From NCBI GenBank assembly GCA_049975065.1, contig JBNGDN010000001.1: a DNA stretch of 64,000 nucleotides; one strand, 5' to 3'. This document shows positions 3,563-58,388 of this stretch, in pieces; the stretch's first letter is position 1; every line of letters begins with the position of its first letter. Origin of the DNA: Hydrogenovibrio sp. (GTDB lineage: Bacteria > Pseudomonadota > Gammaproteobacteria > Thiomicrospirales > Thiomicrospiraceae). The translations under genes were made by a program, and so were the position numbers. The notes beneath the pieces were generated by a model. The model was not told the origin of the DNA and did no database searches. It worked only from the letters and a program-made list of their open reading frames with translations.

Positions 3563-4760
3563 TGCTCAAGAGGCCTCACAGCGAGGCCAACCTCCCTCAC
3601 CTGTTTTTGCACTGGTCGCCGGTGAAGCCTCTGGTGACACGCTTGGCGCTGAGCTGATAATCTCTTTGAAACAGCGGTTTCCGCAGGCTTGTTTTGTGGG
3701 GATTGGTGGGCCTAAAATGCTGGCTGAAGGCATGGAAAGCTGGTATCCGATGGAGCGGTTGTCGGTAATGGGGTTTTTTGAAGTCCTTAAAGTTTTACCA
3801 GGCCTGGTCAAATTGCGTCATCGGCTGATTCAAGGGTTGCGGGCGTTACAGCCGGATGTGTTTATTGGTATTGATGCGCCGGATTTTAACTTTCGTGTCG
3901 AGGCTGAACTCAAAGCAGCTGGGGTGCCGACGGTTCATTATGTCGGCCCTTCGGTTTGGGCCTGGCGCGAAAAACGGTTGCTCAAAATCAAACACTGTGT
4001 GGACGGCGTGTTGGTGCTCTTTCCGTTTGAGTTACCCTTTTATGAGAAATATGGCATTCCAGCTCGTTTTGTCGGTCATCCTTTAGCCAATCAGGTGCCT
4101 GAGGTGCCCAATGCTGAACGGGCGAGAAGGGCGCTTGGGGTGCCGTTGGATGTTCCAGTGACGGGGCTTCTGCCCGGTTCGCGTCGCAGTGAAATTGATT
4201 CCATGATCGATGTTTATGTCCAGGCAGCGGCGTTTCTCGCCGACGTCTATCCAAGTATGTGGTTTTTGGTGCCGTGTGTGAACGCCGCCGCAAAACAACG
4301 TGTGGCGCAGTCATTTTCCCAGTATGGTCGCGACTTGAACGTTCTTTTGTTGGATCAGCAGGCTCAGCGGGTGATGGAGGCCGCGGATCAACTGATTGTG
4401 ACGTCCGGCACCGCCACTTTGGAAGCCGCCTTGATGAAGCGCCCCATGGTTCTGGCGATTAAGTTGCACCCCATCACCCACTGGATTATGCGTCGTCTAG
4501 CGACAACTCAGTGGGTTGGCTTGCCGAATGTGCTGGCGCAAAAATCCATTGTGCCGGAATACATTCAACAGGCGGCAACCCCTAAGCAAATTGCGTTAGG
4601 CCTGGGGAAACTCATTTCCGACCCTGCTTTGCGCCAAGCGCAACTGACCGAATTTGACGCTCAATATCACTTGCTCAAGCAAGCGGCTTCTGAGCGCGCG
4701 GCGGAGGCGGTAGTGGAGTGGAGTGGATTGAATGAGTGGGTGTATGACCAAACTACCTGA
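3546..4760 (+). CDS. lpxB: Lipid-A-disaccharide synthase
   Basis: Contains the LVAGEASGD motif near the N-terminus. Overlaps the lpxA stop. GTG start is assumed. Confidence 0.92.
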
Positions 4761-5376
4761 GCAATTAACCTTGTTTGAATTGGCTTCGTGCAAAACTTCC
4801 GGCTATGTTGTTGGGGTCGATGAAGTGGGGCGGGGGCCTTTGGTCGGGGATGTGGTTGCGGCGGCGGTCATTTTGCCGGAGTCGTGCGAGCTGAACCTGA
4901 AAGATTCTAAAAAATTAACGCCATCGCAACGCACAAGGCTGGCGGATGCCATTCAAGCGCAGGCGCTGGCATTTTGCATTGCCAGTGCGACACCGGAGGA
5001 AATTGATCGGCTGAATATTTTGCAGGCGACCCTCGTGGCGATGCAGCGTGCGGTCAGCGGCTTGCATTTGCCGATTGCACAGGTGTTGGTCGACGGTAAC
5101 CATTGTCCATCGCTCGAATACCCTTGTGAAGCGATTGTAAAAGGGGATGGCAAGGTTCCTCAGATCAGTGCGGCCTCAATTCTGGCGAAGGTGCATCGTG
5201 ACCGACAGATGCTGGCGTTGCATGAGCGTTACCCGGATTATGGCTTTCAGCAGCACAAAGGGTACCCGACTCGACAGCACCTGGAAAAGATCGCCCAATT
5301 GGGTGTGATTCCTGGATACCGCCACTCTTTTAAACCGGTTCAAAAGGTTTTGAAGGCCTGGTCTGCACGAGCTTGA
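4732..5376 (+). CDS. rnhB: Ribonuclease HII
   Basis: Motif [21 protein letters not shown]; last gene of the lpx cluster as in E. coli. Confidence 0.93.
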
Positions 5377-5460
5377 GTCGGTTTTGGATGCGCGTGCCTT
5401 TCCGATGAAAGGGTGATCGTCCAGGGGCTTCCTTGAGCCATTTTTCTTGAACCATTTTTC

Positions 5461-5492
5461 CGGTTGCCCCAAATTGGTGAAACATTCGGGTT
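5461..5492 (+). repeat. Solo right-arm-like remnant of the 169-bp repeat family
   Basis: cggttgccccaaattggtgaaacattcgggtt resembles the right terminal arm tcggtgcaaatttgtgaaatattcgggtt of the elements at 15694 and 41664. No left arm was found nearby. Confidence 0.4.
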
Positions 5493-5693
5493 GAGAAAAG
5501 GGTTCAATTGCTATAAAGTTTGGGAGTGAATGGGGGATGCTGTTTGGGTTTGCCGTTTGGATTTACCCTTTAGGCGCGGCCATCGTAGCGATGCGTTTCC
5601 CGAGTCACGCTGTTACTTGAGTGAAAAACGGATTTTTTTATTATTCTGAGACTGCCTGTGTGCAAAAGTCTCCTTGAAACATTGGGATAGGCC

Positions 5694-6671: not shown

Positions 6672-6769
6672 AACGCCAGAAGCCCAAGCGGCAACGAAGT
6701 GCGTCAATGAAGTTGTTTTTCTTGAAGGGCATGAAGGGTTTAGGCGATTCGGAATTGACAAGCGGACAC

Positions 6770-6799: not shown

Positions 6800-6819
6800 A
6801 ATGGAATCTCTCAGTGAGA

Positions 6820-9040: not shown

Positions 9041-9044
9041 ACGC

Positions 9045-9755
9045 ATGACGGCCACCGCCAGTATTCTCGCGATTGAAACTTCTACCCAGGCCTGCTCAGC
9101 CTGTCTGATCCATCATGGCACGTCTTATTTAGAGTATGAGTTAGCGCCGCAGAAGCATGCGGATCGTATTTTAACCATGGTTGAAAAGGTGCTTCATCAG
9201 GCCGATGCCAGGCCTGGTGATATCCAGCTTCTGGCTTTTGGGGAGGGGCCGGGGGCGTTTACTGGCGTGCGAATTGCGACCGGCGTGATTCAAGGGTTGG
9301 CCTTTGGTTGGGATAAGCCAGTACTGGGCGTTTCAACCTTGGAAGCACTGGCTTGGCAAGGGTATCAAGCAACAGGTGCCTTGGATTGGCTGGCGTTTCT
9401 GGATGCGCGTATGCAGGAAATGTATTTACAGGCGTGTCGCATTGAGTCGGGACGCCTGGTTTCGCAAGCGCCGCAATTGATGTCTGCCGCGCAAGCGCAC
9501 CAGTGGATCGAAACCCAGACCGGTACGCCCAGTGGGGTGGGTGATATAGCGGTGGAGTTTCCAGTGACAGCGGCCAGGTTTTCAGCCTGGTACTCGGCGC
9601 GACCTTCTGCGCAGGCGATCGCGGAGGTCGCGCAACAGCGCTTATCCCAAGCGCATTCGGTGGATGATGTTTTGCCAATGCCGCTTTATTTGCGCAATCA
9701 GGTGGCGGAGAAACCTAAGCCTAAACCACCTTCCGCGTATAGCCGGAAAATTTAA
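9045..9755 (+). CDS. tsaB: tRNA t6A biosynthesis protein TsaB (YeaZ)
   Basis: N-terminus ILAIETSTQACSACL and GEGPGAFTGVRIA motif. Confidence 0.9.
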   Translation: MTATASILAIETSTQACSACLIHHGTSYLEYELAPQKHADRILTMVEKVLHQADARPGDIQLLAFGEGPGAFTGVRIATGVIQGLAFGWDKPVLGVSTLEALAWQGYQATGALDWLAFLDARMQEMYLQACRIESGRLVSQAPQLMSAAQAHQWIETQTGTPSGVGDIAVEFPVTAARFSAWYSARPSAQAIAEVAQQRLSQAHSVDDVLPMPLYLRNQVAEKPKPKPPSAYSRKI

Positions 9756-11132: not shown

Positions 11133-11440
11133 AAGATAGAGCCTCCAAAGTGAAATATTCAAGATTCGTCCGACAATAATACGATTTCATTGTACTGATA
11201 AACGGCTGGGCTTCTTATTAATGTTTTTACCCGCACACTAAATAAAATTTATCATTATAAAATTGATCATGGTTGCTTTGAAGACTGGTTGCTTTGAAGA
11301 TTTAGTTCTTGGCTACCAATGATCTAACCCGAGATAAGTCACAAAATGCCCAGGTCTGGCAATTTTTCAAGCCGCAAGGCTGCCGGGATGGCTCTGGCTC
11401 CGTGAGGGGTTGAGGAAGTCATGATTCACGAGGAAACTGT

Positions 11441-14282: not shown

Positions 14283-15590
14283 TTGAAAATGTCGCAATCA
14301 AAGGTCGAATCCGCCGTTTCGGCCTGGCTGGCGCAATATCCGCCGCCCAACCGCTTTTTGGTAGCGTTTAGTGGTGGTATGGATTCTGTGGTATTGTTGG
14401 ACGCCTTATCTAGGGTATTGCCGCCCAATCGGCTCCGAGCGGTTTACATTCATCATGGGTTGCAACCCGAGGCGAGCGATTGGCAGGATTTTACCGCGGA
14501 CTTCTGTCGTACGCGCGGCATTGAGTATCAGTCGGTGGCGGTGCAGGTGGCGACCGCCAAGCGTCAAGGCCTGGAAGCTTTGGCGCGTGCAGCACGCTAT
14601 CAAGCCTTGTATGAATGCCTTGATGCCCAGACCATTTTATTGACGGCGCACCATCTGCGAGATCAGGCGGAAACCTTTCTGCTCAATGCGTTGCGCGGTT
14701 GCGGCCTCTCTGGGTTAGCGGCCATGCCATCCGAAAAAACCGTGCGTTTCCAAGGGCGAGTGCACCTGCATGCTCGTCCACTTCTTGATGTGCCTTATTC
14801 GGCCTTGCAATTTTATGCGCACCAGCACCGTCTGACTTGGGTGGCGGATCCCTCCAATTCCGATCCGAGCTTTCGGCGGAATTTCATCCGCCATCGCGTG
14901 TGGCCACACATTGACCAGGCCTGGCCAAAAGCCGAAAAGACGTTAGGGCAAACCATTGAGCATCTGTCCGAATCCGTCTGTTTGTTGGATGCCTTGGCCA
15001 AGCAAGACCTGGATGGAGCAGTGATGAATGCCTATCAATTAAGCTTGGAAGGGGTTTCCCGTTTGGGCGCTTTGCGGGTTAAAAATGCGTTGCGCTATTG
15101 GGCGCGTGAAGTGGCGCTGAATGTCCGCTTAAACGAGACGGTTTACGCTTGGGTATTACAGTGCTTGCAGCATTCAAACCCTGAATCGCATCCGCGTTTA
15201 AAGCAGGCGGGCATGGAGTATCGTTGGCATCGAAATCAACTGTATGCTTTTTCAGAGGCCATGTTGCGCGTAATTGCCGATGCGGATTATCGTGTGGTTG
15301 GGGCGGACTTTCAGGCACAAAATTATTATTTTTCGCATAGGCTTTACCAAGGTACAGAAAGTGACCAGGCCTGGTTAAACGCCAGATTATCGTCCGATGG
15401 GGCTTGGGTGCGCGCGATGAAACCAGAAGATGTGCAGCGCCTCGGTTTGAAGTCGCGTCTGAAAAAATGGTTTCAGCGTCAAGGGGTGCCGCCTTGGGAT
15501 CGTCGTCGCTGGCCGCTGTTGGAAAAAGATGGCGAAATCATCGCCGTTTTGGGCGGTGTTGAAGCGGATCTGTCGCATCGAACGGAATGA
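14283..15590 (+). CDS. tilS: tRNA(Ile)-lysidine synthase
   Basis: PP-loop motif VAFSGGMDS; accA-tilS synteny. Start is uncertain (TTG 14283 or ATG 14289). Confidence 0.9.
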   Translation: MKMSQSKVESAVSAWLAQYPPPNRFLVAFSGGMDSVVLLDALSRVLPPNRLRAVYIHHGLQPEASDWQDFTADFCRTRGIEYQSVAVQVATAKRQGLEALARAARYQALYECLDAQTILLTAHHLRDQAETFLLNALRGCGLSGLAAMPSEKTVRFQGRVHLHARPLLDVPYSALQFYAHQHRLTWVADPSNSDPSFRRNFIRHRVWPHIDQAWPKAEKTLGQTIEHLSESVCLLDALAKQDLDGAVMNAYQLSLEGVSRLGALRVKNALRYWAREVALNVRLNETVYAWVLQCLQHSNPESHPRLKQAGMEYRWHRNQLYAFSEAMLRVIADADYRVVGADFQAQNYYFSHRLYQGTESDQAWLNARLSSDGAWVRAMKPEDVQRLGLKSRLKKWFQRQGVPPWDRRRWPLLEKDGEIIAVLGGVEADLSHRTE

Positions 15591-15693: not shown

Positions 15694-15862
15694 TTAACCC
15701 GAATGTTTTATGGATTTGTGCCGAAATTGCGCAGAACCTTGTTTTCACAAGGAAATTTTCGAAGAAGTGTCGTATTCATGATTACGGCCGACTGAGAAAA
15801 TATTTCTTGTAGAATCAAGGAGCAAGCAAGGTCGGTGCAAATTTGTGAAATATTCGGGTTAA
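15694..15862 (+). mobile_element. 169-bp MITE-like / structured-RNA repeat, intact copy 1
   Basis: 157/169 identical, without indels, to 41664-41832. TTAA at both ends. The 31-nt terminal arms pair continuously (24 Watson-Crick + 7 G-U in + sense). Internal hairpins at 15737-15752 and 15769-15788. No ORF. Confidence 0.85.
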
Positions 15863-20316: not shown

Positions 20317-20904
20317 CTATTTGTCGGTGCCGCTTGTCGTACCTTGTTTTTTTAAAAATACGTACACGGCGCCAGTGCCACCGTGCTTGGGTTGCGCGCT
20401 GCAAAAGGCCAGAACTTGAGGCCATTGTGGTAAACGACAATTGACTAGATTTTTTAAAACCGGTTGCTTCGATTCGGAGTTGTAGCCCTTGCCGTGCACA
20501 ATGATAAGGTATCGCGCTTTGTGGGCAATGGCTTCCTGAAGAAACCGAGCAAGTGCTTTGTCCGCCTGAGCTTCGGTCAAGCCATGCAGGTCGAGTTCAA
20601 ACGCGGTTGAAAAGTCGCCTTTTTTTAACCGTTTAAAATCCTGTGCCGAACAGTCTGGTTGTCGGTATTCGAGCGTTTCAAACGCAGAAACGCTCTGGGT
20701 AGAGTTTTCCCAGGCCTGGTGTTTCATTGAAAATGAGGTCTGATTGTCGAGATGATGACTGGGGTGATGCGACGTTTTGGTGCGCTTGCGTGGGCGGAGG
20801 TGTCCTGCCGCATTGGGTGAGTAAGCTTTGGACGTTTTGAGTTTTTGTACGTCCTTTACGGCTTGTTCAAACAGGGATTTATCTGCATCTGAAATGGACG
20901 ACAT
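20317..20904 (-). CDS. smrB: Smr-domain endonuclease (SmrB/YfcN-like)
   Basis: C-terminal Smr domain (LDLHGLT..A...L..F......R.L.IVHGKG...) with an N-terminal basic region, like E. coli SmrB. Confidence 0.7.
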   Translation of the reverse strand: MSSISDADKSLFEQAVKDVQKLKTSKAYSPNAAGHLRPRKRTKTSHHPSHHLDNQTSFSMKHQAWENSTQSVSAFETLEYRQPDCSAQDFKRLKKGDFSTAFELDLHGLTEAQADKALARFLQEAIAHKARYLIIVHGKGYNSESKQPVLKNLVNCRLPQWPQVLAFCSAQPKHGGTGAVYVFLKKQGTTSGTDK

Positions 20905-21030: not shown

Positions 21031-21110
21031 CAACAGGACCTTATAAAAAAATTCAGAACCTCATAATAATATTCAGGACTTCATAATAATATTCAGGATC
21101 TTATGAAAAT
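21031..21110 (+). repeat. Four phased 20-bp tandem direct repeats running into the surE start codon
   Basis: caacaggaccttataaaaaa / attcagaacctcataataat / attcaggacttcataataat / attcaggatcttatgaaaat. The last unit contains the surE ATG (21103). Confidence 0.8.
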
Positions 21111-24098: not shown

Positions 24099-24459
24099 TG
24101 AGGCCGAGAACAATATTGCGATCTTCGGTGGTGAGGACATTGTAGGTTCGGCAAGCCGCGGCGTTGTCCATGACTTCAAGGCCAATGCCGTTTTGAGCGC
24201 AAAAACGAAACAGACTGGGGTCGGGAAAAATCTGCCGTTCACCGGTGCCGAGGATGATCACATCGGGTTTTAATGCAAACAGCGCTTTTAAATGGTTTTC
24301 GTCGAGTGCGTCCAGGCTGGGACAGTTCCAGTCGCTGTTCAGTTCATGCTGGCTCAAAAAGCAACTGCTGTCGATTTCAAATTCATTGATTTTGACCAGG
24401 CCTGGGCGATATTGTTTAACCGTCAAGATATTGGAATCTCGGTGTTCTGTGAATTTCAA
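24079..24459 (-). CDS. Mth938-like (DUF498) domain protein
   Basis: 126 aa with pattern ...PDVIILGTGERQIFP...GIGLEVMDNAAACRTYN.L..E.R.V. Its 3' end overlaps nlpD by 20 nt (convergent). Confidence 0.7.
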   Translation of the reverse strand: MKFTEHRDSNILTVKQYRPGLVKINEFEIDSSCFLSQHELNSDWNCPSLDALDENHLKALFALKPDVIILGTGERQIFPDPSLFRFCAQNGIGLEVMDNAAACRTYNVLTTEDRNIVLGLIMAKPE

Positions 24460-24967: not shown

Positions 24968-26164
24968 GTGACTGGCGACTTTCAAAGAATCAAACGACTT
25001 CCTCCCTATGTGTTCAATATCGTCGGCGACCTAAAAGCGCAAGCGCGACGGCGCGGTGAAGACATTATTGACTTTGGCATGGGGAACCCCGATCAGGATA
25101 CCCCGCAGCACATTGTCGATAAGCTTGTGGAAGTGGTTCAGCGTGAAGGCACCCATCGTTATTCTGTCTCGCAAGGCATTCCGCGGTTGCGCAAAGCCAT
25201 TTGCAATTGGTATAAAACCAAATTCGACGTGGATCTGGATATGGATACCGAAGCGGTGGTGACGATTGGTTCCAAAGAAGGCTTGGCGCACCTGGCGTTG
25301 GCCACAGTCGATAAAGGGGATACGGTGCTGGTGCCGAATCCGGCTTATCCCATTCATCCTTATGGATTTGTGATTGCCGGAGCCGATATTCGCCATGTGC
25401 GCATGACACCGGATGTGGGTTTTTTCGAGGAATTGGAAAAGGCCATAAAGGAATCCTGGCCGACGCCGAAAATGCTGGTGTTGAACTTTCCTGGGAATCC
25501 GACCACGCAAACCGTGGAATTGGAATTTTTTGAAAAAGTCGTGGCCATCGCGAAAGAGCACGATATTTGGGTGATTCATGATTTGGCGTATGCCGATATT
25601 GTGTTTGACGGCTACCAATCACCCTCGATTCTGCAGGTGGAGGGGGCGAAAGACATTGCCGTGGAATTTTACACCCTGTCGAAAAGTTACAATATGCCTG
25701 GCTGGCGTGTCGGCTTTATGGTTGGAAATCCAGACCTGGTGAATGCGTTGAAACGCATGAAATCCTATCTGGACTATGGCACTTTTACCCCCATTCAGGT
25801 GGCAGCGATTGCGGCATTGGAAGGACCGCAGGAGTGTGTTCAGGAAATTTGTGATATGTATCGTGTTCGGCGGGATGTGCTGTGTCAGGGATTGAACAGC
25901 ATCGGCTGGGAAGTCGAGCCGCCGAAGGCGACCATGTTTGTCTGGGCACCGATTCCCCCCGCCTATCGAGAAATGGGGTCTTTGGAGTTTTCGAAAAAAC
26001 TGCTAACCGACGCTAAGGTAGCGGTTTCTCCTGGGATTGGTTTTGGTGACTATGGCGACGATCATGTCCGTTTTGGTTTGATTGAAAATGAACATCGCAC
26101 TCGTCAGGCGATTCGCGGCATTCGGGATATGTTCCGCAAAGATGGGTTGATCAACGTTAAATAA
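24968..26164 (+). CDS. alaC: Class I/II aminotransferase (AlaC/YfdZ-like alanine transaminase)
   Basis: [38 protein letters not shown] closely parallels the E. coli AlaC N-terminus; PLP lysine context [14 protein letters not shown] start. Confidence 0.85.
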
Positions 26165-27533: not shown

Positions 27534-28586
27534 ATGTCTAAGTCCTCTTTGGCGCTCACTCTGTGGGTGCCCAATCTGCTGACGGAAGCCGTTTGCAGTG
27601 CCCTCCGGGAAGCGGCTCCTTCCGAGTTGTCTGCGAAAGCCTTTCCGGCGCTGACCACTTTGATGTCGCGTGCCGATGTATTTTCGGTCAAGTCGCAGTC
27701 GATTTACGACACAGGCGCCTATCTGTTTCATCAGACGGTTTCGCAGCCGCCAGCGGCAACCATGGCCTTGGCACAGTTAGCAGACTTCGAGGTGGCCGAT
27801 TTTTGGTTGAGAGCCGAACTCTGCCAGATGATTCCGGATCGCGACTCCTTGGTGCTGATTCCAGCGGCGGATTTAGGGGTTTCTGAGGCCGAAGCGGAGG
27901 CTTTGCGGTTGGCCTTTAACGAATACTTTGCATTGGATGGCGTTCGGCTGGAAGCCGGTGGGCGAACGGATTGGTATTTGCGCTTGCCGCAAACGGTGGA
28001 TGTGCATACCTTTCCCTTGCCAGAGGTCGCTTATCGCCACGTTCAATCCTGTTATCCGAGTGGGCATGCGGCACCCTATTGGCGGCAATTGATGAATGAA
28101 GCGCAAATGCTGTTCTTCAGTCATCCGGTCAATGAAGCGCGGCGAGAAGCCGGCCGTCCGGAAATCAACAGCCTCTGGTTTTGGGGCGAGGGAGCTTTGG
28201 ATCTAAAGGGGGCGGTGCGCCGACCAAATGCCAATGTGTGTTCGGATGATCTTTACTTTCAAGGGTTGGCAAAGCTCACCCAAGCAGGCTGTCAGCCAGA
28301 ACCGATAAACTACCAGGCCTGGTCGGAATCGGCTTTGGCGATGGCTCAACCTCTGTCGCATCATTTGATTCACCTTGACCGAGCCGCACCGCGGGACGGC
28401 ACGCTTTCGGATTGGCTTTCGCAGTTGCACAGGCTTGAAGCCGATTGGTTTGCGCCCTTGTTGGCGGCCTTGCGGCAAGGGGCGCTGCACTCGTTATTCA
28501 TTGACGTGGGGCGGCCTCAGCGTTATCACTTAAAGCCGACGCACCTTCGCCGCTTCTGGCGACGTCGCAAATCGATTGTGCTTTGA
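27534..28586 (+). CDS. Conserved-looking hypothetical protein embedded between hom and thrC
   Basis: 350-aa ORF, 36 nt after the hom stop. Its composition resembles the neighbouring genes. I recognise no family. Confidence 0.6.
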   Translation: MSKSSLALTLWVPNLLTEAVCSALREAAPSELSAKAFPALTTLMSRADVFSVKSQSIYDTGAYLFHQTVSQPPAATMALAQLADFEVADFWLRAELCQMIPDRDSLVLIPAADLGVSEAEAEALRLAFNEYFALDGVRLEAGGRTDWYLRLPQTVDVHTFPLPEVAYRHVQSCYPSGHAAPYWRQLMNEAQMLFFSHPVNEARREAGRPEINSLWFWGEGALDLKGAVRRPNANVCSDDLYFQGLAKLTQAGCQPEPINYQAWSESALAMAQPLSHHLIHLDRAAPRDGTLSDWLSQLHRLEADWFAPLLAALRQGALHSLFIDVGRPQRYHLKPTHLRRFWRRRKSIVL

Positions 28587-30209: not shown

Positions 30210-30234
30210 ACGCAAAAGCGGCGATTGCACTTTT

Positions 30235-32118: not shown

Positions 32119-32703
32119 GGTTTTTTAAGCACGGGAAACAGCTATAAAGCACAATGGATACGCCAAGCGTTTGCGTCATTGAATAAGCCAGGCCTGGCGG
32201 TATTGACACCCACCTATCCGATGGTTTCGCCGCAGGCTTCAATGGCGGCCATTGAGCGGTGTGTGTTGGAGGCGGGGCTGCAGAATCACCAGGCCTGGTG
32301 TGTTTTCGGTTCCTCCATGGGCGGATTTTACGGTCGCTATATCGCCCAGCGTTATGGTGTCGGTGTGTGTATGATTAACCCGGCCTTGCAGCCTGAGCCG
32401 ATACTGCGCCCACACCTTGGAGAGCATCGGCATCCGAGTAGCGGTGAGGTGATAACGCTCAATGAATCTTATCTGCAGAATTTGCACGCTTATCAATCCG
32501 ATGTGGACCCACAACAGATGGCCTTAGTGTTACTGGATAAGGGCGATGAGGTGATTCCGTATGAATCGGCTTTTGAGGCTTACAATCCACTGGGACAGGT
32601 GCGGCTGTTTGAGGGCGGTGATCATGCGTTTCAGCATCTCGACCAGGCCTGGCCGGATATGGTGCGGTTTGTGGAACAGACGGTGGGGGTGTCTTTATCT
32701 TAG
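32101..32703 (+). CDS. yqiA: YqiA-family alpha/beta esterase
   Basis: MILYLHGF..., GSSMGG nucleophile elbow, GGDHAF near the C-terminus; collinear with E. coli YqiA. AAGGAAG lies upstream of ATG 32101; the track ORF starts at 32032. Confidence 0.78.
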   Translation: MILYLHGFLSTGNSYKAQWIRQAFASLNKPGLAVLTPTYPMVSPQASMAAIERCVLEAGLQNHQAWCVFGSSMGGFYGRYIAQRYGVGVCMINPALQPEPILRPHLGEHRHPSSGEVITLNESYLQNLHAYQSDVDPQQMALVLLDKGDEVIPYESAFEAYNPLGQVRLFEGGDHAFQHLDQAWPDMVRFVEQTVGVSLS

Positions 32704-37042: not shown

Positions 37043-38440
37043 TTAGGCTTTTGCCCCAAGTAAGCGGGTGACGCCAAAGGCGGCGTCGGCGTGATTTACG
37101 TTGACCATTTCGCCGGGCAACGCTTGCGCCCGCAAAGCCATCCAGGCAGTGTTCTGTGTGCCACCCCCAGTGGTGAACAGCCGTTTCAGTCTGGGTGCGC
37201 CCAGCGTTTCAAAGCGTTGATACCCCAAGGCTTCAATGGCCACCAATCCTTCCAGCAGTCCCTGTAAAAATTGTTCATCCGAATCGGGTCTTGGCGTCAC
37301 GCGCGGAGCCAGCGTCGGGTCGTTGATAGGAAATCGCTCGCCGTTCGACAGCAGCGGATAGTAGTCTAAACCGCTCGGTTGCTGAATATTGAGCTGGGCG
37401 ATCAGCTGTTTCAGCGTTTTCAGATCAAAGTATTTCAATAGGACGGCACCACCGGCATTCGATGCGCCGCCAACCAACCAGCGGTCTTGCAGGCGATGGC
37501 TGTAAAGACCGTATTCCGGCGCAAAAATGGGTTGGTCGGATAACAGTTTCAGTGCCAGAGTGGACCCAAGCGACGTGACGGCGTCTCCGATTCGATGAGC
37601 GCCGGTGGCTAAAAACGCCGCTAGACTGTCGGTGGTGCCGCTGACAATTTGCATGCTCGGGTCGAAGCCGAATCGTTTGGCCAAGTCGGGGGAGATTGAG
37701 CCAATGGGCGTGCCGGGGGACACGACTTTCGGCAAGCAGAGCTGTGTCAGCTCGCCAATCCAGTTTGGCCAGGCCTGGTGAATCGGGTCGTATCCCAGTT
37801 TCAAGGCGTTATTTTCATCTGTGGGGACAGGGTGCCCCGTGAGATAGCGGTTCACCCAGTCAATTTGGTGGAAAATATGTGCTTCTTCCCGTTGCGTGAC
37901 CGTGAGTTGATGGGCTTCCAACCACATGACTTTCGCCAGCGTGCTGGAGGCACCGTGTGCCGCGCTCTGCTTGGGTGCGATGCGGGCGATGCGCGAGGCT
38001 TGCGGCTGCGCTCTTCGGTCGTCGTACATCCGTGCTGATGTCCAGGCTTCCCCTTGCTGGCTGCCCAGCAGAACGGTGGAGGAGGTGGCATCCAGTATGC
38101 AATGGGTGATGCGGTTTAAAGGGGTTTTCTGTGCCAGAGAGGCGAGCAGGCGATTGAGTGTCTCAATCCATAATTCGGGACTTTGTTCACTGCAAGCGTC
38201 CTGTCTGTCGGGAAATGGCATGGATTCGGTGGCGGTTGCGAGGGTCTCGTCAAAGGCACGGCTGTTGGCCGGAATAACCAGCGCACGCATTCCCGATGTG
38301 CCAATGTCGATTCCCAGCCAATGTTCGCTGTTTGCCGTGTTTTGTGAGTGTAAGGTGTTGGGTTGTGTCATCATAAAATTGCCGTATTGGCGCTGCGTCA
38401 GTCGGGTGGCCGGTTGGTTCAAAAAACAGACTCGGCTCAT
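37043..38440 (-). CDS. FGGY-family carbohydrate kinase
   Basis: LGIDIGTSGMRA N-terminal phosphate-1 motif and C-terminal ...TTGGGTQNTAWM... motif. Start is uncertain (38440, or the ATGATG at 38374). Confidence 0.8.
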   Translation of the reverse strand: MSRVCFLNQPATRLTQRQYGNFMMTQPNTLHSQNTANSEHWLGIDIGTSGMRALVIPANSRAFDETLATATESMPFPDRQDACSEQSPELWIETLNRLLASLAQKTPLNRITHCILDATSSTVLLGSQQGEAWTSARMYDDRRAQPQASRIARIAPKQSAAHGASSTLAKVMWLEAHQLTVTQREEAHIFHQIDWVNRYLTGHPVPTDENNALKLGYDPIHQAWPNWIGELTQLCLPKVVSPGTPIGSISPDLAKRFGFDPSMQIVSGTTDSLAAFLATGAHRIGDAVTSLGSTLALKLLSDQPIFAPEYGLYSHRLQDRWLVGGASNAGGAVLLKYFDLKTLKQLIAQLNIQQPSGLDYYPLLSNGERFPINDPTLAPRVTPRPDSDEQFLQGLLEGLVAIEALGYQRFETLGAPRLKRLFTTGGGTQNTAWMALRAQALPGEMVNVNHADAAFGVTRLLGAKA

Positions 38441-38644: not shown

Positions 38645-41832
<3,188 letters not shown>

Positions 41833-42433: not shown

Positions 42434-42443
42434 CCAGGCCTGG
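42434..42443. repeat. Intergenic copy of the iterated palindrome CCAGGCCTGG
   Basis: Exact 10-mer (12-bp palindrome gCCAGGCCTGGc) in the 40-bp yjgA/DUF3817 spacer. Confidence 0.95.
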
Positions 42444-42769: not shown

Positions 42770-43681
42770 TCAAAACATTCGGTTCAATAGCAGTCGAAAG
42801 GACTCCCGTGACACACGGTGCCCGAATTCAAATAAAACCAAACCTAAAATCACCAGGCCTGCCCCTGTCCAGATGGTGGCATTGAGCGGTTCCTGATTTA
42901 GGAAATGCCCCAGCAACAGGGCGATGATCGGGGTGATTAAGGTAATCAGTCCCAGTCGCACCGCATCCAGATGCCGCAGCACATAGTAGTAGAGAATAAA
43001 CCCGATCAGCGAGCCGAATACGCCGAGGTAGACAATGGCGCTCAGGGCACGATTTGGCAAGGCGGGTAACTCGATTAAAAATTGCGGATGCAGCAGCAGA
43101 TACACCAGGCTGGAAATCCAGACGGCTCCGGCGACAATGTGCGTGTTGGGCAGACCGTGATTGAGTTTTTTCACCAGTACGGTGCTGAGCGAATGAAACG
43201 TCACCGACAGTAGGGCGAAGCCCAGTCCGGTGAGCAGGGTTTTTCCGGCAGCAGTTTGCCAGCTCAAGTTGGGTGCCAGTACCACCATGAGGCCGATAAA
43301 ACCGACCAGTAACCCCAGGTATTTGCTGAGGGTTAAGGCCATGTTGTGCAAAATAAAATAAGCGAAGAGCCCGGTGACCATCGGCGTTAAACCGAATAAA
43401 AGCGAGACCCATCCGGAAGGCATGGTTTGGGCGGCATAGTACATGGGCGTCATGCCGCCGAGCATGCCGAGACTGGCGGCAAGATAGATGAGTAGATCCT
43501 GTTTTTTCAGTGAAAACCGCTGACGTGTCCAGAAAAGTAAAATGGGAATAATCAGCAGGGCACTGATGAAAATGCGACCGGCCACCCCCACGAGCCAGTC
43601 CTGCTGGCCGCTCCATTGAATGGCTAAAGGGGTGGTAGACCAGATCAGTATCACAGCCAGATAAGCAAGCAATAGTGGCAT
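42770..43681 (-). CDS. EamA/DMT-family transporter
   Basis: 303 aa, about ten TM helices, two EamA-like halves. Confidence 0.8.
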   Translation of the reverse strand: MPLLLAYLAVILIWSTTPLAIQWSGQQDWLVGVAGRIFISALLIIPILLFWTRQRFSLKKQDLLIYLAASLGMLGGMTPMYYAAQTMPSGWVSLLFGLTPMVTGLFAYFILHNMALTLSKYLGLLVGFIGLMVVLAPNLSWQTAAGKTLLTGLGFALLSVTFHSLSTVLVKKLNHGLPNTHIVAGAVWISSLVYLLLHPQFLIELPALPNRALSAIVYLGVFGSLIGFILYYYVLRHLDAVRLGLITLITPIIALLLGHFLNQEPLNATIWTGAGLVILGLVLFEFGHRVSRESFRLLLNRMF

Positions 43682-44751: not shown

Positions 44752-45051
44752 TTATGGAAGCACCTTTTTAAAGGGTTTGACCTCAACTTTTTCGTAAACG
44801 CCGGCCGCCAGATAAGGGTCGGCATTTGCCCAGGCCTGGGCGTTTTCCAAAGAGTCGAACTCGGCGACGATGAGGCTGCCGCTGAACCCGGCTTCGCCTG
44901 GGTCGTTGGAATCCACGGCGGGGTTGGGGCCGGCCAAAATCAGACGACCAGCCTCTGACAGTGCTTTTAAGCGAGCGATGTGTTCTGGGCGTGCCTGCGC
45001 ACGTAATGGCAAACTGTTTTCGACGTCGTAGGCGAATATGGAATACAACAT
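44752..45051 (-). CDS. yciI: YciI-family protein
   Basis: 99 aa with pattern ...RP.H......L...G.L.LAGP...; lies 2 nt downstream of yciB. Confidence 0.8.
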
Positions 45052-45053
45052 GA

Positions 45054-48163: not shown

Positions 48164-49210
48164 ATGACGTTTTACAAACAGGAACAGTCGCCTTCGTCGC
48201 CGAAGCGCAAACAGGATGCGCGTCAAGCGCCTGTTAAATCATCTGCTAAATCATCGGCTAAAACGTCCCGCTCGGGAACGCTCGGGGAGCGATTGCAGAA
48301 AATTTTAGCGCGCGGAGGCTTTGGTTCGCGTCGCGAAGTTGAAAAGCTGATTGAAGCAGGCCTGGTGAAAGTGAATGGTAAAGTCGCCGTGCTCGGCGAT
48401 CGCGCCCGAGAAACCGACACGATCCAGGTGCGCGATCAGCCAGTGCGCGAAACCCGACTGGCGGTGCAGCCGACTCAGGTCATTCTGTATAACAAGCCCG
48501 AAGGGCAGGTGTGTAGTCGCAAGGATGAAAAAGGGCGTGACACCATTTACAGTCATTTACCGCGTATCATCAACAGTCGCTGGGTCAGTGTGGGACGTTT
48601 GGATCTGAACACTTCCGGTTTGTTGGTGCTGACCAATAATGGCGAGCTGGCCAATCGGATGATGCACCCATCCTATGAAATGGAGCGTGAGTATTCGGTG
48701 CGGGTGTTTGGTGAGGTGTCCGACGAGATTTTGACGCGTCTTAAAAAAGGGGTCAAGCTGGAAGACGGCTGGGCGAAATTTGATCGCATCGATAAAATTC
48801 CCCAGCAAGAAGAGGATGCCATTAACCAGTGGTATCGGGTGGTGATCAAAGAGGGGCGCAACCGTGAAGTGCGTCGCATCTGGGAATCGCAAGGCGTGCA
48901 GGTCAGTCGTCTGGTGCGCACCCGTTATGGCGCCTTTGATTTGCCGCGAAATTTACGCCGTGGTAAATCAGAAGCCTTGACCTGGAAGCAAATCAATCAG
49001 TTGCTCAAATCGGTTGGTTTGCCGGAAGAACCCAGGCCGGATTTGCGCGAGCGCCTCGGCACGCCCGCAAAAGCGAAACCGGCGATTGAGCGCACCACCG
49101 GTCGTGGTGTCTATCGCCGCAAAGGTGAAAATCATCGTGAAGAAACGCTCAAAGAAGCGGCCAGTCCATATAAAGGTAAAAGCACCAGGCCTGGCAAAAC
49201 ACGTCGATAA
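48164..49210 (+). CDS. rluB: 23S rRNA pseudouridine synthase RluB
   Basis: S4 domain (RLQKILARGGFGSRREVEKLI..G.V.VNG), catalytic GRLD.NTSGLL motif, Lys/Arg-rich termini. Confidence 0.9.
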   Translation: MTFYKQEQSPSSPKRKQDARQAPVKSSAKSSAKTSRSGTLGERLQKILARGGFGSRREVEKLIEAGLVKVNGKVAVLGDRARETDTIQVRDQPVRETRLAVQPTQVILYNKPEGQVCSRKDEKGRDTIYSHLPRIINSRWVSVGRLDLNTSGLLVLTNNGELANRMMHPSYEMEREYSVRVFGEVSDEILTRLKKGVKLEDGWAKFDRIDKIPQQEEDAINQWYRVVIKEGRNREVRRIWESQGVQVSRLVRTRYGAFDLPRNLRRGKSEALTWKQINQLLKSVGLPEEPRPDLRERLGTPAKAKPAIERTTGRGVYRRKGENHREETLKEAASPYKGKSTRPGKTRR

Positions 49211-49259: not shown

Positions 49260-49964
49260 GTGCATAAGAGTTTAGTGACCAATCTCATCAGCGTGCTGAT
49301 TTTGCTGGTTGGGTTTGTGACGGCCAACGATTGGCTGTTGATGGTGGGGCTGTTTGCTTTGTCGGGTGCGCTGACCAATTGGCTGGCGCTGCACATGCTG
49401 TTTGAAAAAGTACCCGGCCTGGTGGGTTCTGGAGTGGTTCCGGCACGCTTTGAAGATTTTAAAAACGCGATTCGTGATTTGATGATGCAGCAGTTTTTTA
49501 CCCAGGAAAACATTGATCGCTTTATCCGTCAGTCGGCCAAGCCAAGTCTGCATTTAGCCCCGGTGATTGAGAAGGTTGATTTAACGCTGGCCTATGACCG
49601 CTTGGTGGATGTGATTATGGCGTCCAGTTTTGGCAGTATGCTGGGGATGTTTGGTGGTAAAGAAGCGCTCACGCCGCTGAAAGAACCGTTTGTCACCCAT
49701 ATGAAATCGGCGCTGATTGAAATCACCGAGCGGGAATCGTTTGCGCAACTGTTACAGCAGCAGGTGGATCAGCCGGATGTGATGGCGGAAATCCGTCAGC
49801 AAATCGAAACCATTATCGAAGCGCGTCTGGCGGAGTTGACCCCAAAAATGGTCAAGGACATGGTGCAACAGATGATTCACCAACATTTGGGCTGGTTGGT
49901 GGTCTGGGGAGGCGTTTTCGGCGGCCTGATCGGGTTGGTCGCGCAGGGTTTAATGCAGGTTTAA
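49260..49964 (+). CDS. DUF445-family membrane protein
   Basis: 234 aa. N-terminal TM pair and ...TNWLALHMLFEKVPG... motif. GTG start. Confidence 0.6.
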   Translation: MHKSLVTNLISVLILLVGFVTANDWLLMVGLFALSGALTNWLALHMLFEKVPGLVGSGVVPARFEDFKNAIRDLMMQQFFTQENIDRFIRQSAKPSLHLAPVIEKVDLTLAYDRLVDVIMASSFGSMLGMFGGKEALTPLKEPFVTHMKSALIEITERESFAQLLQQQVDQPDVMAEIRQQIETIIEARLAELTPKMVKDMVQQMIHQHLGWLVVWGGVFGGLIGLVAQGLMQV

Positions 49965-51140: not shown

Positions 51141-52236
51141 ATGGAACTGAATCCGATTTACAGCAAAATCAAAGATTTTACCGAGCGCACAGACGTGCTT
51201 AGGGGGTATCTTTGACTATGAAACTCGGCAGGAACGCCTCGTTGAGGTTGATCGTGAGCTGGAAGATCCGGCCGTTTGGAGCGACCCAGAACGCGCCCAG
51301 AATTTAGGCAAAGAAAAAGCCCATCTGGATAAGGTGGTTAAAACCATCCAAGATTTGGACGGCAGTCTGGAATCGGCTCAGGAAATTCTGGAAATGGCGG
51401 AAATGGACGCCGATCAGGAAATGGTCGATGAAGTGGTCAGCGAGCTGGCGCGCCTAGAACAGGCGTTGGATACGTTGGAATTCCAACGTATGTTTTCCGG
51501 CGAGCTGGATGCCAATAATTGTTATCTGGAAATTCAAGCAGGGTCGGGTGGCACCGAAGCGCAGGACTGGGCTAATATGCTGCTGCGGATGTATTTACGC
51601 TGGGCGGAAAGCCGTGGGTTTAAAGCCGAATTAATGGAAGTGTCTGCCGGGGATGTGGCCGGCATCAAAGGCGCTACCGTGCATGTGCAAGGCGATTATG
51701 CCTTTGGCTGGTTGCGCACCGAAACCGGTGTGCACCGTCTGGTACGCAAGTCACCCTTCGATTCCGGCAACCGTCGTCACACCTCGTTTGCCTCCGTCTT
51801 TATCTCGCCGGAAATCGACGACAGTTTTGAGATTGAAATTAACCCGGCCGATTTACGAATCGACGTTTACCGCGCCAGTGGAGCCGGTGGTCAGCACGTT
51901 AACCGAACCGAGTCGGCGGTGCGGATAACCCACTTGCCGACCAATACGGTGACGCAATGTCAGAACGGGCGCTCGCAGCACCAGAACAAGGCCGAAGCCA
52001 TGAAGCAGTTGCGCGCCAAGCTTTACGAGTTGGAAATGCTGAGCCGTAACGCCGAGAAGCAGGAGTTGGAAGACAGCAAATCCGACATCGGTTGGGGCAG
52101 TCAGATTCGCTCTTACGTGCTGGACTCGGGCCGCATCAAGGATTTACGCACCAATGTCGAAACTGGTAATACCACGGCGGTGTTGGACGGTGATCTGGAT
52201 CAGTTCATCATTCCAAACCTGAAAGCGGGCGTCTGA
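51141..52236 (+). CDS. prfB: Peptide chain release factor 2, expressed through a programmed +1 frameshift
   Basis: ORF0 (ATG 51141, 24 codons) ends CTT TGA C. After skipping T51213 the +1 frame continues into the track ORF ending at 52236 and carries the SPF and GGQ motifs. Confidence 0.95.
51201..51216 (+). promoter_or_regulatory. RF2 autoregulatory +1 frameshift site (internal SD + CTT TGA C)
   Basis: agggggtatctttgac is the same as the E. coli prfB recoding cassette AGGGGGTATCTTTGAC. Confidence 0.95.
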
Positions 52237-52267: not shown

Positions 52268-52277
52268 CCAGGCCTGG
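52268..52277. repeat. Intergenic copy of the iterated palindrome CCAGGCCTGG
   Basis: Exact 10-mer in the prfB-lysS spacer. Its 24-nt context aaaataaccaggcctggtgaaaac is 22/24 identical to the context at 53943-53966. Confidence 0.95.
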
Positions 52278-53949: not shown

Positions 53950-53959
53950 CCAGGCCTGG
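53950..53959. repeat. Intergenic copy of the iterated palindrome CCAGGCCTGG
   Basis: Exact 10-mer inside the 14-bp palindrome caCCAGGCCTGGtg, between the lysS terminator and the ygfZ stop. Confidence 0.95.
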
Positions 53960-53971
53960 TGGAAACGCTGG

Positions 53972-55896: not shown

Positions 55897-56016
55897 GGCT
55901 CAAGAAGGCTTTATTCACAGTGACACTACACTAGAATCAGTACCTCCAGAGAGCATTTTTTTGTTTCGTCTGAGCGCAATTCTCGCAATGCTCATAATGA
56001 TTAGGGTCAGAGATTT

Positions 56017-57633
56017 TTAATTTTTTTTGCGCATTTGACTGTGGGGTTTCGGCTTCAGTTGGGTGGGGCGACTGCGTTTTTTGGTGTAAGGGTAGTCAAG
56101 GTTGTAGTTTAGCCCACGGCTTTCTTTACGCTTGAGGGCGCTTTGAATCATCAGTTCGGCCACCTGTCCTAGGTTGCGTAATTCGAGCAGATCAGCATTC
56201 AATTTATGCTGATAGTAATAATCATAGATTTCCTGTTTCAGCACTTTGATGCGTCTCAAAGCGCGTTTCAGGCGCTTGTCGGTGCGGACGATTCCGACGT
56301 AATCCCACATCAGTCGGCGTACTTCATCCCAGTCGTGACTGATCAGCACCTTTTCTTTGGGCGGCGTGACGCGAGTGTCATCCCAGTCCCGCACGTGACG
56401 ATCGGGCTGAAAGGTCGGTTGCATTTTTTGCTTGATATCTTGATAAGCCGTTTCCGCAAACACCAAGCCTTCGACCAGAGAATTGCTGGCGAGCCGGTTG
56501 GCACCGTGCAAACCGGTGTAGGCGGTTTCGCCGATGGCGTATAAATGTTTGATGTCGGTTTGCCCCTGAAGATCGGTGGTAACGCCCCCGCAGGTGTAGT
56601 GCGCAGCGGGCACCACTGGAATCGGCACTTGTGTAATGTCGATGCCGACGTTTAAGCAGCGTTGATAAATAGTGGGAAAGTGTTCGAGGATAAACGATTT
56701 GGGTTTGTGTGAGATGTCGAGAAAAACGCAATCGATCCCGTGCTTTTTCATTTCTTGGTCAATGGCTCTGGCGACGATGTCACGGGGCGCAAGCTCTTTG
56801 CGGTCGTCGTAAAGGTGCATAAAGGTGTCGCCATTGGGGAGTTTTAAAAGGCCGCCTTCGCCGCGGACGGCTTCGGATATTAGAAAGGAACGGTCTTGTG
56901 GATGATACAAGCAGGTCGGGTGGAATTGATTAAATTCCATATTGGTGACAGAGCAGCCGGCTCGCCAAGCCATGGCAATGCCGTCACCGGTTGAGGTGTC
57001 CGGATTGCTGGTGTAGAGGTAGGTTTTGCTGGCTCCCCCTGTGGCGAGAACGGTAAACTGGGCTAGGTGCGTTTTCACGTCCCCGCTGTCGGGTTCCAAA
57101 ATGTAGGCGCCGATGCAACGGCTACGATCTTGATTGAGGATCAGATCCACCGTCATGTGGTTCGGCAGTAAGGTGATGTTTGGGTTGGATTGAACTGCTT
57201 CCAGCAAAGTTTTAGTCACTGTTTTGCCGGTATGATCTGCGGCGTGAATCACTCGCCGATGACTGTGGCCGCCTTCTTGCGTCAAGTGGTAGTCATCGGA
57301 GGTTTTTTGTTTGCTGAAAGCGACGCCGAGCTCAATGAGTTCGTAAATGGCTTGCGCGCCTTTTTCAGCCACCATTTTGACGGTTTCAATTTGACACAAA
57401 CCGGCACCCGCCTCCATGGTGTCTTGGATGTGGGATTCAATCGAATCAAACGGGTCTAAAACCGCGGCAATCCCCCCTTGGGCGTAAGCTGAACTGCCTT
57501 CGTTTAAGGATGACTTGGCCACGAGGGTAATGGAATAATGGCGTGCCAGTTTAAGTGCAATGGATAGACCGGCAATCCCACTGCCAATGACGAGTGCGTG
57601 GGTGGTCGTTGGGTGAGTTTCGGTGTTTTTCAT
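56017..57633 (-). CDS. nadB: L-aspartate oxidase
   Basis: FAD dinucleotide motif VIGSGIAGLS close to the chosen start (MKNTETH...). 538 aa. The track ORF extends to 57738. Confidence 0.93.
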   Translation of the reverse strand: MKNTETHPTTTHALVIGSGIAGLSIALKLARHYSITLVAKSSLNEGSSAYAQGGIAAVLDPFDSIESHIQDTMEAGAGLCQIETVKMVAEKGAQAIYELIELGVAFSKQKTSDDYHLTQEGGHSHRRVIHAADHTGKTVTKTLLEAVQSNPNITLLPNHMTVDLILNQDRSRCIGAYILEPDSGDVKTHLAQFTVLATGGASKTYLYTSNPDTSTGDGIAMAWRAGCSVTNMEFNQFHPTCLYHPQDRSFLISEAVRGEGGLLKLPNGDTFMHLYDDRKELAPRDIVARAIDQEMKKHGIDCVFLDISHKPKSFILEHFPTIYQRCLNVGIDITQVPIPVVPAAHYTCGGVTTDLQGQTDIKHLYAIGETAYTGLHGANRLASNSLVEGLVFAETAYQDIKQKMQPTFQPDRHVRDWDDTRVTPPKEKVLISHDWDEVRRLMWDYVGIVRTDKRLKRALRRIKVLKQEIYDYYYQHKLNADLLELRNLGQVAELMIQSALKRKESRGLNYNLDYPYTKKRSRPTQLKPKPHSQMRKKN

Positions 57634-57779
57634 GTATTTGTGACTACGCCTTTTGCCGATTTGCCGAAAGAGGTCATGAGGCTCGCCTTGCCATTGGAAG
57701 GGGCAGGCCGATTTCAACACCTCTTGAAAATAAATCAAATGGTACCATAACTGTTAAACAATCATGGAGTCGATAGAGA

Positions 57780-58388
57780 ATGAGCAATTCATCCGGTAGC
57801 AGACGTCCTACAGCGCAAGCGCGGAAGACGGCCTCTCAAACCCGTTTAGGAGCCTTGCAGAGTCGAAACGCCCCGAGCGAACTTGAAGCGACTTCGCGGA
57901 TGACGGCGAACGGGCTGGTCGAATCCGTCGATGGTGATTGGGCAGAGGTGTTAACGCAGCGTCAGACGGGCTGCAGCGGTTGCGGTTCCCAAAAAGGGTG
58001 CGGTACAGCGTCTTTGGCCAAGCTGTTTGTCCCTCGGCAGCCCGGTCGGCTTCGGGTGCGCAATGCCATTAGCGCCAGGCCTGGCGATACGGTTCGCCTG
58101 TCAATGGATGAGTCACAATTCATCCAACATTCTCTGATGGCCTATGGGATACCATTATTAGGACTCTTTGTAGGCGGGTTGTGTGTTAGCTGGATGACCC
58201 AGGCCTGGGAAGAAACGGCTGTTTCGGAATGGATGACGGTTCTGGGGGGGCTGTTCGGAATGATTGTCGGTTGGCTTGGGGTGCGTAGGTTTTATCATCC
58301 TGAGCCACCGTTAATGGAGGCTGTGATTACGGTGTCAGAGGTGGAGCAATCCTTGGGTCGCACGTCGGATCAGTCAAGCATAAGCTGA
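57780..58388 (+). CDS. rseC: RseC/MucC-family protein (sigma-E regulatory / SoxR-reducing system component)
   Basis: Cys-rich segment CSGCGSQKGCG, then two TM helices, as in RseC. The start may instead be ATG 57900 (MTANGLVESV...). Confidence 0.7.
   Translation: MSNSSGSRRPTAQARKTASQTRLGALQSRNAPSELEATSRMTANGLVESVDGDWAEVLTQRQTGCSGCGSQKGCGTASLAKLFVPRQPGRLRVRNAISARPGDTVRLSMDESQFIQHSLMAYGIPLLGLFVGGLCVSWMTQAWEETAVSEWMTVLGGLFGMIVGWLGVRRFYHPEPPLMEAVITVSEVEQSLGRTSDQSSIS

Follow-up and report, generated by a model that had tools for sequence, protein, structure and literature searches.

A hyper-abundant palindromic word in Hydrogenovibrio and related genera with features of HIP1 and of DNA uptake sequences

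Words that recur at very high density are uncommon in genomes, and how they arise has long been puzzling. To our knowledge, the highly iterated palindrome of cyanobacteria (HIP1) has had no proven function since the 1990s, the machinery that writes or reads it has not been found in thirty years, and uptake sequences are established in two families only, namely the DNA uptake sequence (DUS) of Neisseriaceae and the uptake signal sequence (USS) of Pasteurellaceae. HIP1 is a perfect palindrome with a nested inner palindrome, is conserved above background and is missing from some lineages (PMC4390886, PMC5861425). Its one-mismatch variants concentrate at the outermost positions (PMC4390886), and recent work proposes that it serves as a signal for uptake or transformation that depends on methylation (bioRxiv 10.1101/2024.09.10.611283; 10.64898/2026.06.24.733823). 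The spacing of DUS is tied to the length of recombination tracts, and DUS and USS accumulate in terminators (PMC2397512); dialects of DUS are the subject of PMC3630211. Here, we analysed the palindromic 10-mer CCAGGCCTGG in a 64-kb stretch (hereafter, the window) of a metagenome-assembled genome (MAG) of Hydrogenovibrio sp., a vent sulfur bacterium. It is almost certain that this word is a highly iterated palindrome of the Hydrogenovibrio/Thiomicrorhabdus/Thiosulfativibrio group, with an invariant core, a dialect in the window lineage, substitution in place, strong retention and even spacing. As judged from sequence comparisons, it is an iterated word of the HIP1/DUS kind that is maintained by selection or drive, is family-wide with dialects and has been lost in some clades.

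Like HIP1, the word is short and perfectly palindromic, exceeds expectation by orders of magnitude and occurs both in genes, in all frames, and in intergenic DNA (17 coding and 3 non-coding copies in the window). The likeness extends to its spread by substitution, its conservation above background, the bias of one-mismatch variants to the outermost bases, a nested inner palindrome and the existence of lineages without the word. The two differ in sequence and host, HIP1 being GCGATCGC in cyanobacteria and the present host being gammaproteobacterial; in extent, with a core of 8 bp, a 10-bp dialect and preferences to ~20 bp here; and in density, which reaches 1 per 0.35–1 kb for HIP1 and ~1 per 3 kb here. 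In addition, the present word is often found at terminator apexes in low-GC relatives, and HIP1 has a defining link to orphan methyltransferases (CGATCG and GATC enzymes). With DUS and USS, the word has in common the length of a 9–12-mer, a kilobase density, the use of all frames and the reshaping of peptides, as well as family-wide dialects around a constant core, a spacing comparable in scale to recombination tracts and, in relatives of the window lineage, placement in terminators; USS likewise combines a GC-rich core and AT-rich flanks. However, DUS and USS are asymmetric and form inverted pairs in terminators, whereas the word is a palindrome that stands singly at the hairpin apex; its density is ~3-fold lower, and phage-like contigs carry it at host-like density. 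Chi is likewise an over-represented 'self' word embedded in genes, at ~1 per 3–5 kb, but it is asymmetric, replication-skewed and few-fold enriched, whereas the present word is a palindrome enriched >100-fold.

We counted 20 exact copies of CCAGGCCTGG in the window (~1 per 3 kb; 0.31 copies per kb), at every position given in the original prediction, which had been made by eye. It was the most frequent 10-mer, and the next unrelated 10-mer had 6 copies. In 100 dinucleotide-preserving shuffles of the window, the mean and maximum counts were 0.09 and 2, respectively, and Markov models of orders 0–4 gave 0.05–0.21 expected copies, or 0.05–0.12 when the copies were masked before model estimation; the enrichment was thus 100–400-fold. 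Markov models of order at least 6 reproduced the count, but this is circular, as the sub-words on which they rely come from the word itself. The extension to a 12-bp palindrome at 13 of the 20 sites, and to a 14-bp palindrome at 6, was reproduced, as was the distribution of the 17 coding copies over 12 unrelated genes. All seven one-mismatch sites listed earlier were real, and an eighth, absent from that list, is included in Table 1. The word also lies outside the 169-nt repeat of the window, as had been stated, both copies of which (15694-15862 and 41664-41832) lack CCAGGCCTGG, and it is not part of any longer repeat; the sites had no common sequence past about 20 bp. Overall, these results support the central claim of the original prediction, namely that this is a hyper-abundant palindrome of the HIP1 or uptake-sequence type acting at the DNA level. 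The comparisons with Markov and codon-shuffled expectations that it had proposed came out in its favour. Our literature search found no description of the word in any bacterial genome, the H. crunogenus genome papers included, in agreement with the earlier remark that none was known for such organisms. The word seems new to the literature on the Hydrogenovibrio family, while iterated words as a kind of feature are already known.

Inside genes, the word behaves as a DNA signal. The coding copies were located on both strands of 12 open reading frames (ORFs) and in all three frames, where they encoded P-G-L (five copies), x-R-P-G (three) and Q-A-W (nine). When synonymous codons were permuted in the 59 ORFs, the count averaged 1.03 and no shuffle of the 300 exceeded 4, versus the 17 observed, so a codon-usage effect was rejected. 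The word was present in 17 of the 19 peptide contexts able to encode it, and the tripeptide QAW itself occurred 9 times versus 1.06 expected from the amino-acid composition (8.5-fold). At all nine sites with outgroup data, the residues of word-free relatives differed, while the anchoring Trp, Gly or Leu was ancestral. From word-free to word-bearing proteins, the replacements were EAW/PAW, FTW/QGW, SGW/DDW and xHW/xYW to QAW, PDQ/HIQ and FEL to PGL, and xKG/xNG to RPG. The orthologue alignments contained in-frame substitutions and no indels. The differences at nine of nine sites mean that the word was written into variable protein stretches by amino-acid-changing substitutions, as has likewise been described for uptake sequences (PMC2817400). 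A protein motif was therefore rejected, given this origin and the use of three frames.

The word was also retained in relatives far better than its surroundings. Window LigA was 92% identical to a cluster that includes H. thermophilus along with Thiomicrospira sp. S5 and XS5; its identity to the H. crunogenus protein was 79%. The original prediction had proposed to see whether orthologous positions in related genomes carry the word, and they did: over an orthologous 22 kb shared with L081, a member of the H. thermophilus clade, the aligned DNA was 75.6% identical, and six of the seven aligned word sites were conserved versus 11% of all 10-mers (binomial p=1.2e-5). Among five genomes of this clade, window included, with 75–88% DNA identity, five sites were present in all five and two in four, the exceptions being XS5 (CCAGGCTTGG) and the window (CCCGGCCTGG). 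Each of the five genomes also had private word sites. Sites are thus gained and lost, yet kept far better than the surrounding sequence. A candidate shared site in lpxB of the window and Thiomicrorhabdus was rejected, since the similar flank TCAAATTG belonged to a non-orthologous site.

When one-mismatch variants were pooled, 16 of 24 changes fell at positions 1 and 10, as in HIP1, and GCAGGCCTGG/CCAGGCCTGC occurred 11 times versus 0.36 expected. Sampling of other lineages showed the conserved unit to be the octamer CAGGCCTG, and CCAGGCCTGG is the dialect of the window lineage. The flanks of the window copies preferred R at -1 and Y at +1, S at -2/+2, T-rich sequence from -3 to -5 and A-rich sequence from +3 to +5, so that a GC-rich core is flanked by AT-rich bases. 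The extended window consensus was roughly TTTSRCCAGGCCTGGYSAAA, with a weaker palindromic preference to ~20 bp (TTTSR-core-YSAAA). Shuffling the right flanks among the genic sites of the window left their complementarity undiminished (p=0.34); specific bases are therefore preferred in genes, not pairing as such. Covariation of the flanks was positive in the pooled set only, owing to terminators. The largest gap between the 20 copies was 5.8 kb (P=0.001 under random placement), and the coefficient of variation of the gaps was 0.63 (P=0.02), i.e., the copies were more evenly spaced than random. Five gaps were shorter than 500 bp, which was not significant, and pairs of copies in the same gene occurred. 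The density extrapolates to ~800 copies per 2.6 Mb genome.

Beyond the H. thermophilus clade, the core CAGGCCTG remained constant in Hydrogenovibrio, Thiomicrorhabdus and Thiosulfativibrio, and the outer bases varied by lineage, in the manner of uptake-sequence dialects. The order-3 Markov expectation for the octamer was 0.1–0.9 per locus in the sampled lineages. H. crunogenus had 6 octamers in 22 kb, both of its exact 10-mers being at terminator apexes; a lineage with 73% LigA identity had 5 in 12 kb; and a Thiomicrorhabdus subclade that includes a named MAG had 4–6 per 12–22 kb, with flanks TGACCAGGCCTGGTCA. T. hydrogeniphila (36% GC) had 7 octamers in 22 kb in the form TTTA[C/A]CAGGCCTGGTAAA, and Thiosulfativibrio zosterae had 4 in 22 kb in the form CAACCAGGCCTGGTTG. 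In a T. chilensis MAG, 8 octamers were found in 22 kb and none was the 10-mer; the form there was gGCAGGCCTG[T/C]c (dialect GCAGGCCTGY). The octamer did not occur in 50 kb of a sister Thiomicrorhabdus clade, whose PyrG is 86–89% identical to that of the positive clade, nor was it found in the sampled loci of T. xiamenensis, another Thiomicrorhabdus MAG, a lineage with 71% LigA identity and two Piscirickettsiaceae MAGs. A metagenome scan with YcaO, which yielded 14 loci, showed both positive and negative Thiomicrorhabdus clades. As a negative control, 79 more distant gammaproteobacterial ligA loci, taken from a LigA scan of a genome collection, contained one copy of the 10-mer in about 1.3 Mb.

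Table 1. Exact copies of CCAGGCCTGG and one-mismatch variants in the window (5/5 and 4/5, number of genomes of the H. thermophilus clade with the word)
Position	Word	Location (strand)	Frame or placement	Relatives and remarks
3798..3807	exact	ORF 3546-4760 (+)	P-G-L	conserved in relative L088
9208..9217	exact	ORF 9045-9755 (+)	(A)R-P-G	L088 has TCAGACCTGG; outgroups with other residues
14915..14924	exact	ORF 14283-15590 (+)	Q-A-W	outgroups xHW or xYW; Trp ancestral
15365..15374	exact	ORF 14283-15590 (+)	Q-A-W	
20710..20719	exact	Smr-domain ORF 20317-20904 (-)	Q-A-W	
24396..24405	exact	DUF498 ORF 24079-24459 (-)	P-G-L	
28313..28322	exact	ORF 27534-28586 (+), no Pfam hit	Q-A-W	
32188..32197	exact	UPF0227/YqiA ORF 32032-32703 (+)	P-G-L	window lineage only; four relatives CCAGGCATTG-like
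32289..32298	exact	YqiA ORF 32032-32703 (+)	Q-A-W	5/5
32643..32652	exact	YqiA ORF 32032-32703 (+)	Q-A-W	5/5; outgroups PAW, EAW
37769..37778	exact	FGGY kinase ORF 37043-38440 (-)	Q-A-W	5/5; outgroups QGW, FTW
39952..39961	exact	ligA 39625-41667 (+)	P-G-L	5/5; outgroups PDQ, HIQ
40128..40137	exact	ligA 39625-41667 (+)	Q-A-W	4/5, XS5 has CCAGGCTTGG; outgroups DDW, SGW
42434..42443	exact	intergenic	24 nt past darP stop; hairpin apex, no T-run	only window copy in a hairpin
44830..44839	exact	YCII ORF 44783-45160 (-)	P-G-L frame	5/5
49185..49194	exact	3' end of rluB-like ORF 48164-49210 (+)	(T)R-P-G	
52268..52277	exact	intergenic	32 nt past prfB stop	
53950..53959	exact	intergenic	between convergent lysS stop (53869) and GCV_T-like ORF stop (53972)	
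58075..58084	exact	rseC 57780-58388 (+)	(A)R-P-G	
58199..58208	exact	rseC 57780-58388 (+)	Q-A-W	
9086..9095	CCAGGCCTGC			octamer core intact
11350..11359	CCAGGTCTGG			central C to T
14565..14574	CAAGGCCTGG			
25730..25739	CCAGACCTGG			eighth site, not in the earlier list
42853..42862	CCAGGCCTGC	eamA		core intact; conserved in L081 and L234
48356..48365	GCAGGCCTGG			core intact
49413..49422	CCCGGCCTGG	DUF445 ORF		exact word in L081, L150, L151, L152 and L083
50355..50364	CCAGACCTGG			

The word was also found on phage-like contigs. In IMG/VR, the 14-mers GACCAGGCCTGGTC and TGACCAGGCCTGGT were rare, two scans giving 49 and 100 stretches among the matches listed. Four phage-like contigs (L119, L182, L216 and L225; 41–47% GC) carried 2–3 copies of the word each in 8–11 kb, often right after stop codons, and encoded portal, terminase, primase, replication O/P-like, major head and tail proteins; L119 had no relatives in IMG/VR. 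Since these contigs were found via the word itself, the sample is biased and only the extra copies count, and those were far above chance. The word is evidently not avoided by phages of these hosts, and it is therefore unlikely to be a restriction target.

Regarding function, we favour, at a probability of roughly 0.4, the reading that the word is a tag for the cell's own DNA, which would act in DNA exchange or repair via a symmetric protein on duplex DNA. A symmetric, probably dimeric protein would read the word on duplex DNA during exchange or repair, and this reader could be uptake/recombination machinery or a methyltransferase-linked system on the nested GGCC or AGGCCT. Word-bearing DNA would be preferentially taken up, recombined or repaired, and we propose that word-creating substitutions would therefore be fixed and word-destroying ones removed, the density settling at ~1 copy per 3 kb. 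Such a tag would follow the logic of DUS and USS and would match the hypothesis that HIP1 is a methylation-dependent uptake signal. The enrichment of the word, its origin by substitution, its retention, its even spacing, its dialects and its placement at terminator apexes in relatives count in favour of this reading. The flanks in genes, which are base-specific and do not covary, fit DNA recognition better than an RNA hairpin. By extension, vent sulfur-oxidisers could use CAGGCCTG and its dialects throughout the family to recognise their own DNA during exchange. This would be the third uptake-sequence system to have evolved independently and the first with a palindrome or, put differently, the first HIP-type word outside cyanobacteria; we put this forward tentatively, as a possibility open to considerable doubt.

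Several points weigh against the tag. The window contained housekeeping genes only, with no uptake receptor, methyltransferase, vsr or competence gene within its 64 kb, and our literature search documented neither natural transformation nor a methylome for these genera. The known uptake sequences are asymmetric and the word is a perfect palindrome. GGCC and AGGCCT outside the word matched their expected counts in word-positive lineages and hence leave no methylation footprint of their own. The phage-like contigs with 2–3 copies each are more simply explained by an in-cell repair or replication bias than by uptake drive; DUS is depleted from recently acquired DNA (PMC2397512), and no such under-representation was seen in these four contigs, which form a word-selected sample. 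Finally, all the evidence on the word comes from comparative sequence analysis.

The strongest of the alternatives, though one that we consider unlikely, is a pure methylation-directed repair ratchet with no uptake role, after Elhai's model for HIP1, in which the word is a by-product saturating at a set density. An orphan methyltransferase would mark GGCC/AGGCCT, and mismatch or short-patch repair near methylated sites would fix substitutions that complete the palindrome. Such a process would be in keeping with the nested methyltransferase-type sites within the palindrome, the even, saturated-looking spacing, the copies on phage-like contigs, the patchy phylogeny with on/off sister clades and the bias of one-mismatch variants to the outer positions, as known for HIP1 (PMC4390886). 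The variant CCAGRYCTGG was in excess (3 observed versus 0.31 expected), and both it and CCAGGCTTGG of XS5 are C-to-T changes, as expected for 5-methylcytosine. AGGCCT and GGCC were weakly depleted only in the octamer-negative lineages (loci L001, L085, L089-L093, L098, L235, L002 and L003), with observed/expected ratios (O/E) for AGGCCT of 0.29 under a second-order model and 0.51–0.57 at higher orders, and for GGCC of 0.58–0.66; however, the contrast between positive and negative lineages was not significant under these stricter models (Fisher p=0.11). The CCAGRYCTGG excess with the XS5 variant, and this depletion, are two weak hints of cytosine methylation at the central GGCC. The scarcity of AGGCCT/GGCC in the octamer-negative lineages may reflect restriction avoidance. 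The ratchet is further disfavoured by the absence of a methyltransferase from the 64-kb window and by the fact that a methyltransferase site of 4–6 bp leaves a specificity of 8–20 bp unexplained. As a side observation, GGGCCC was strongly under-represented in octamer-positive and octamer-negative loci alike (O/E 0.12–0.19 under low-order models), which was mostly explained at the fourth order.

The 10-mer consists of two abutting CCWGG sites, and repair-driven bias is a plausible maker of words; very-short-patch (VSP) repair of the Dcm/Vsr type had been among the mechanisms offered in the original prediction. The bias of VSP repair in enterobacteria is mild, not hundreds-fold, and has no 8–20 bp specificity. 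CCWGG was not in excess outside the word (86 in 64 kb versus about 125 expected from length), nor was it present in every copy, since the T. chilensis dialect GCAGGCCTGY lacks it. For these two reasons, plain Dcm/Vsr drive is the least likely of the proposed mechanisms as a general driver, whereas the uptake, methylation-linked and chromosome-organising roles suggested with it remain candidates.

The last of these, in which the copies would bind an abundant dimeric protein that is nucleoid-associated or organises the chromosome, with selection for regular spacing, is in our view unlikely. Known organiser sites, such as parS, matS, NBS and SBS, are dimer-bound palindromes of 13–16 bp that number tens per genome and are regional, whereas ~800 extrapolated copies per 2.6 Mb would be atypical, with only 64 kb sampled for this figure. 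Helix-turn-helix dimer sites typically conserve separated half-sites, but the best-conserved part of the word is its contiguous central 8 bp; moreover, whole sister clades lack the word, and no candidate protein is known. Some properties do agree with an organiser, including the palindromic consensus of ~20 bp with graded conservation, the strong conservation of sites and the significantly even spacing, and the periodicity of HIP1 has been read likewise (PMC5861425).

A signal at the RNA level was suggested by the placement of the word in relatives. In the low-GC relatives, many copies formed the apex of a perfect hairpin with a T-run downstream, and the stems differed in sequence while pairing was kept. 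The word was found at the apex of intrinsic terminators in H. crunogenus, L083, L081, T. hydrogeniphila and T. chilensis, the cases of terminator placement being L081:1054, two in L082, and L083, L232 and L233; in the window, only the copy at 42434 lay in a hairpin. A hairpin with the octamer 20–35 nt past the darP stop occurred in four lineages, the window included, and its stems covaried. Because the DNA is palindromic, transcripts across any site carry CCAGGCCUGG, a hairpin with a GGCC loop, which could serve to terminate transcription, protect 3' ends or direct RNase processing. The covarying stems in five relatives and the position of all three intergenic window copies just past stop codons (24–81 nt downstream) point in this direction. 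Nevertheless, we regard an RNA-level signal as very unlikely: 17 of the 20 window copies are intragenic and their flanks show no pairing covariation (p=0.34), and the flanks, T-rich on the 5' side and A-rich on the 3' side, have a polarity opposite to that of a terminator. As a tetraloop, GGCC is not known to be stabilising, and no Rfam family matched the window at the gathering threshold. Furthermore, the loop and three closing pairs are invariant while the remaining stem is free, which is the opposite of what structural selection predicts.

Further observations were made on these hairpins. The thrC-recJ terminator carried the word at its apex in H. crunogenus and in three genomes of the H. 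thermophilus clade (L081:1045-1072, L082:1173-1198, L150 and L151 being the loci concerned); it was not present in the window, where the spacer (30210-30234) is only 25 bp. Perfect palindromes of 26–34 bp centred on the word were found at L232:18979-19012, L232:12583-12612 and L087:194-219 (e.g., AAAAAGCTTTTACCAGGCCTGGTAAAAGCTTTTT), and those of 30–34 bp in L232 (T. hydrogeniphila) sat between convergent genes.

A small mobile palindrome (REP-, MITE- or Correia-like) or a compositional, codon-usage or assembly artefact is so improbable that we treat both as refuted for the window copies: the low-GC relatives do have REP-like palindromes of 30–34 bp between convergent genes, but 85% of the window copies lie in frame within conserved genes without indels relative to orthologues and share no sequence past ~20 bp, Markov, dinucleotide and codon shuffles all miss the count, and the same sites recur in independent isolate genomes and metagenome assemblies. 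The resemblance to REP/BIME, ERIC and Correia elements concerns palindromic hairpins at gene 3' ends or between convergent genes in the low-GC relatives; such elements occur only outside genes and have the entire stem in common, whereas only the apex is constant here, with 8–10 bp invariant rather than a shared element of at least 25 bp.

The word represents an independent case in a different phylum from HIP1, and combines traits of HIP1 (the palindrome and nested methyltransferase-type sites) with those of DUS and USS (dialects, terminator placement in relatives and the reshaping of proteins). The octamer-positive cultured species comprise isolates of the H. thermophilus clade (e.g., XS5), H. 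crunogenus, T. hydrogeniphila and Thiosulfativibrio zosterae. Given these and the positive and negative sister clades, the machinery behind the word could be found by phylogenetic profiling. As a strong taxonomic marker, the word could also help to bin metagenomic contigs and to link phages with Hydrogenovibrio/Thiomicrorhabdus vent hosts.

Other features were noted in the window. The two copies of the 169-nt element were 93% identical and had terminal inverted repeats (TTAACCCGAAT...ATTCGGGTTAA), by which it resembles a MITE. One is located between tilS and pyrG, and the other extends over the ligA end and the darP ORF start; BLAST found the element in none of the relatives compared. The prfB (RF2) ORF at 51334-52236 lacks the N-terminus, and upstream of it is a classic programmed +1 frameshift site (GGGGGTATCTTTGAC, with CTTTGA at 51210). 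A tandem repeat at 21034-21111 consists of 3.9 copies of the 20-nt unit CAGGACCTYATAAWAATATT; it lies directly upstream of the ORF that begins at 21103 and extends into its 5' end. The GC skew was about +0.13 on the + strand (G 18,217 versus C 14,111), and since most genes are also on this strand, it is probably the leading one.

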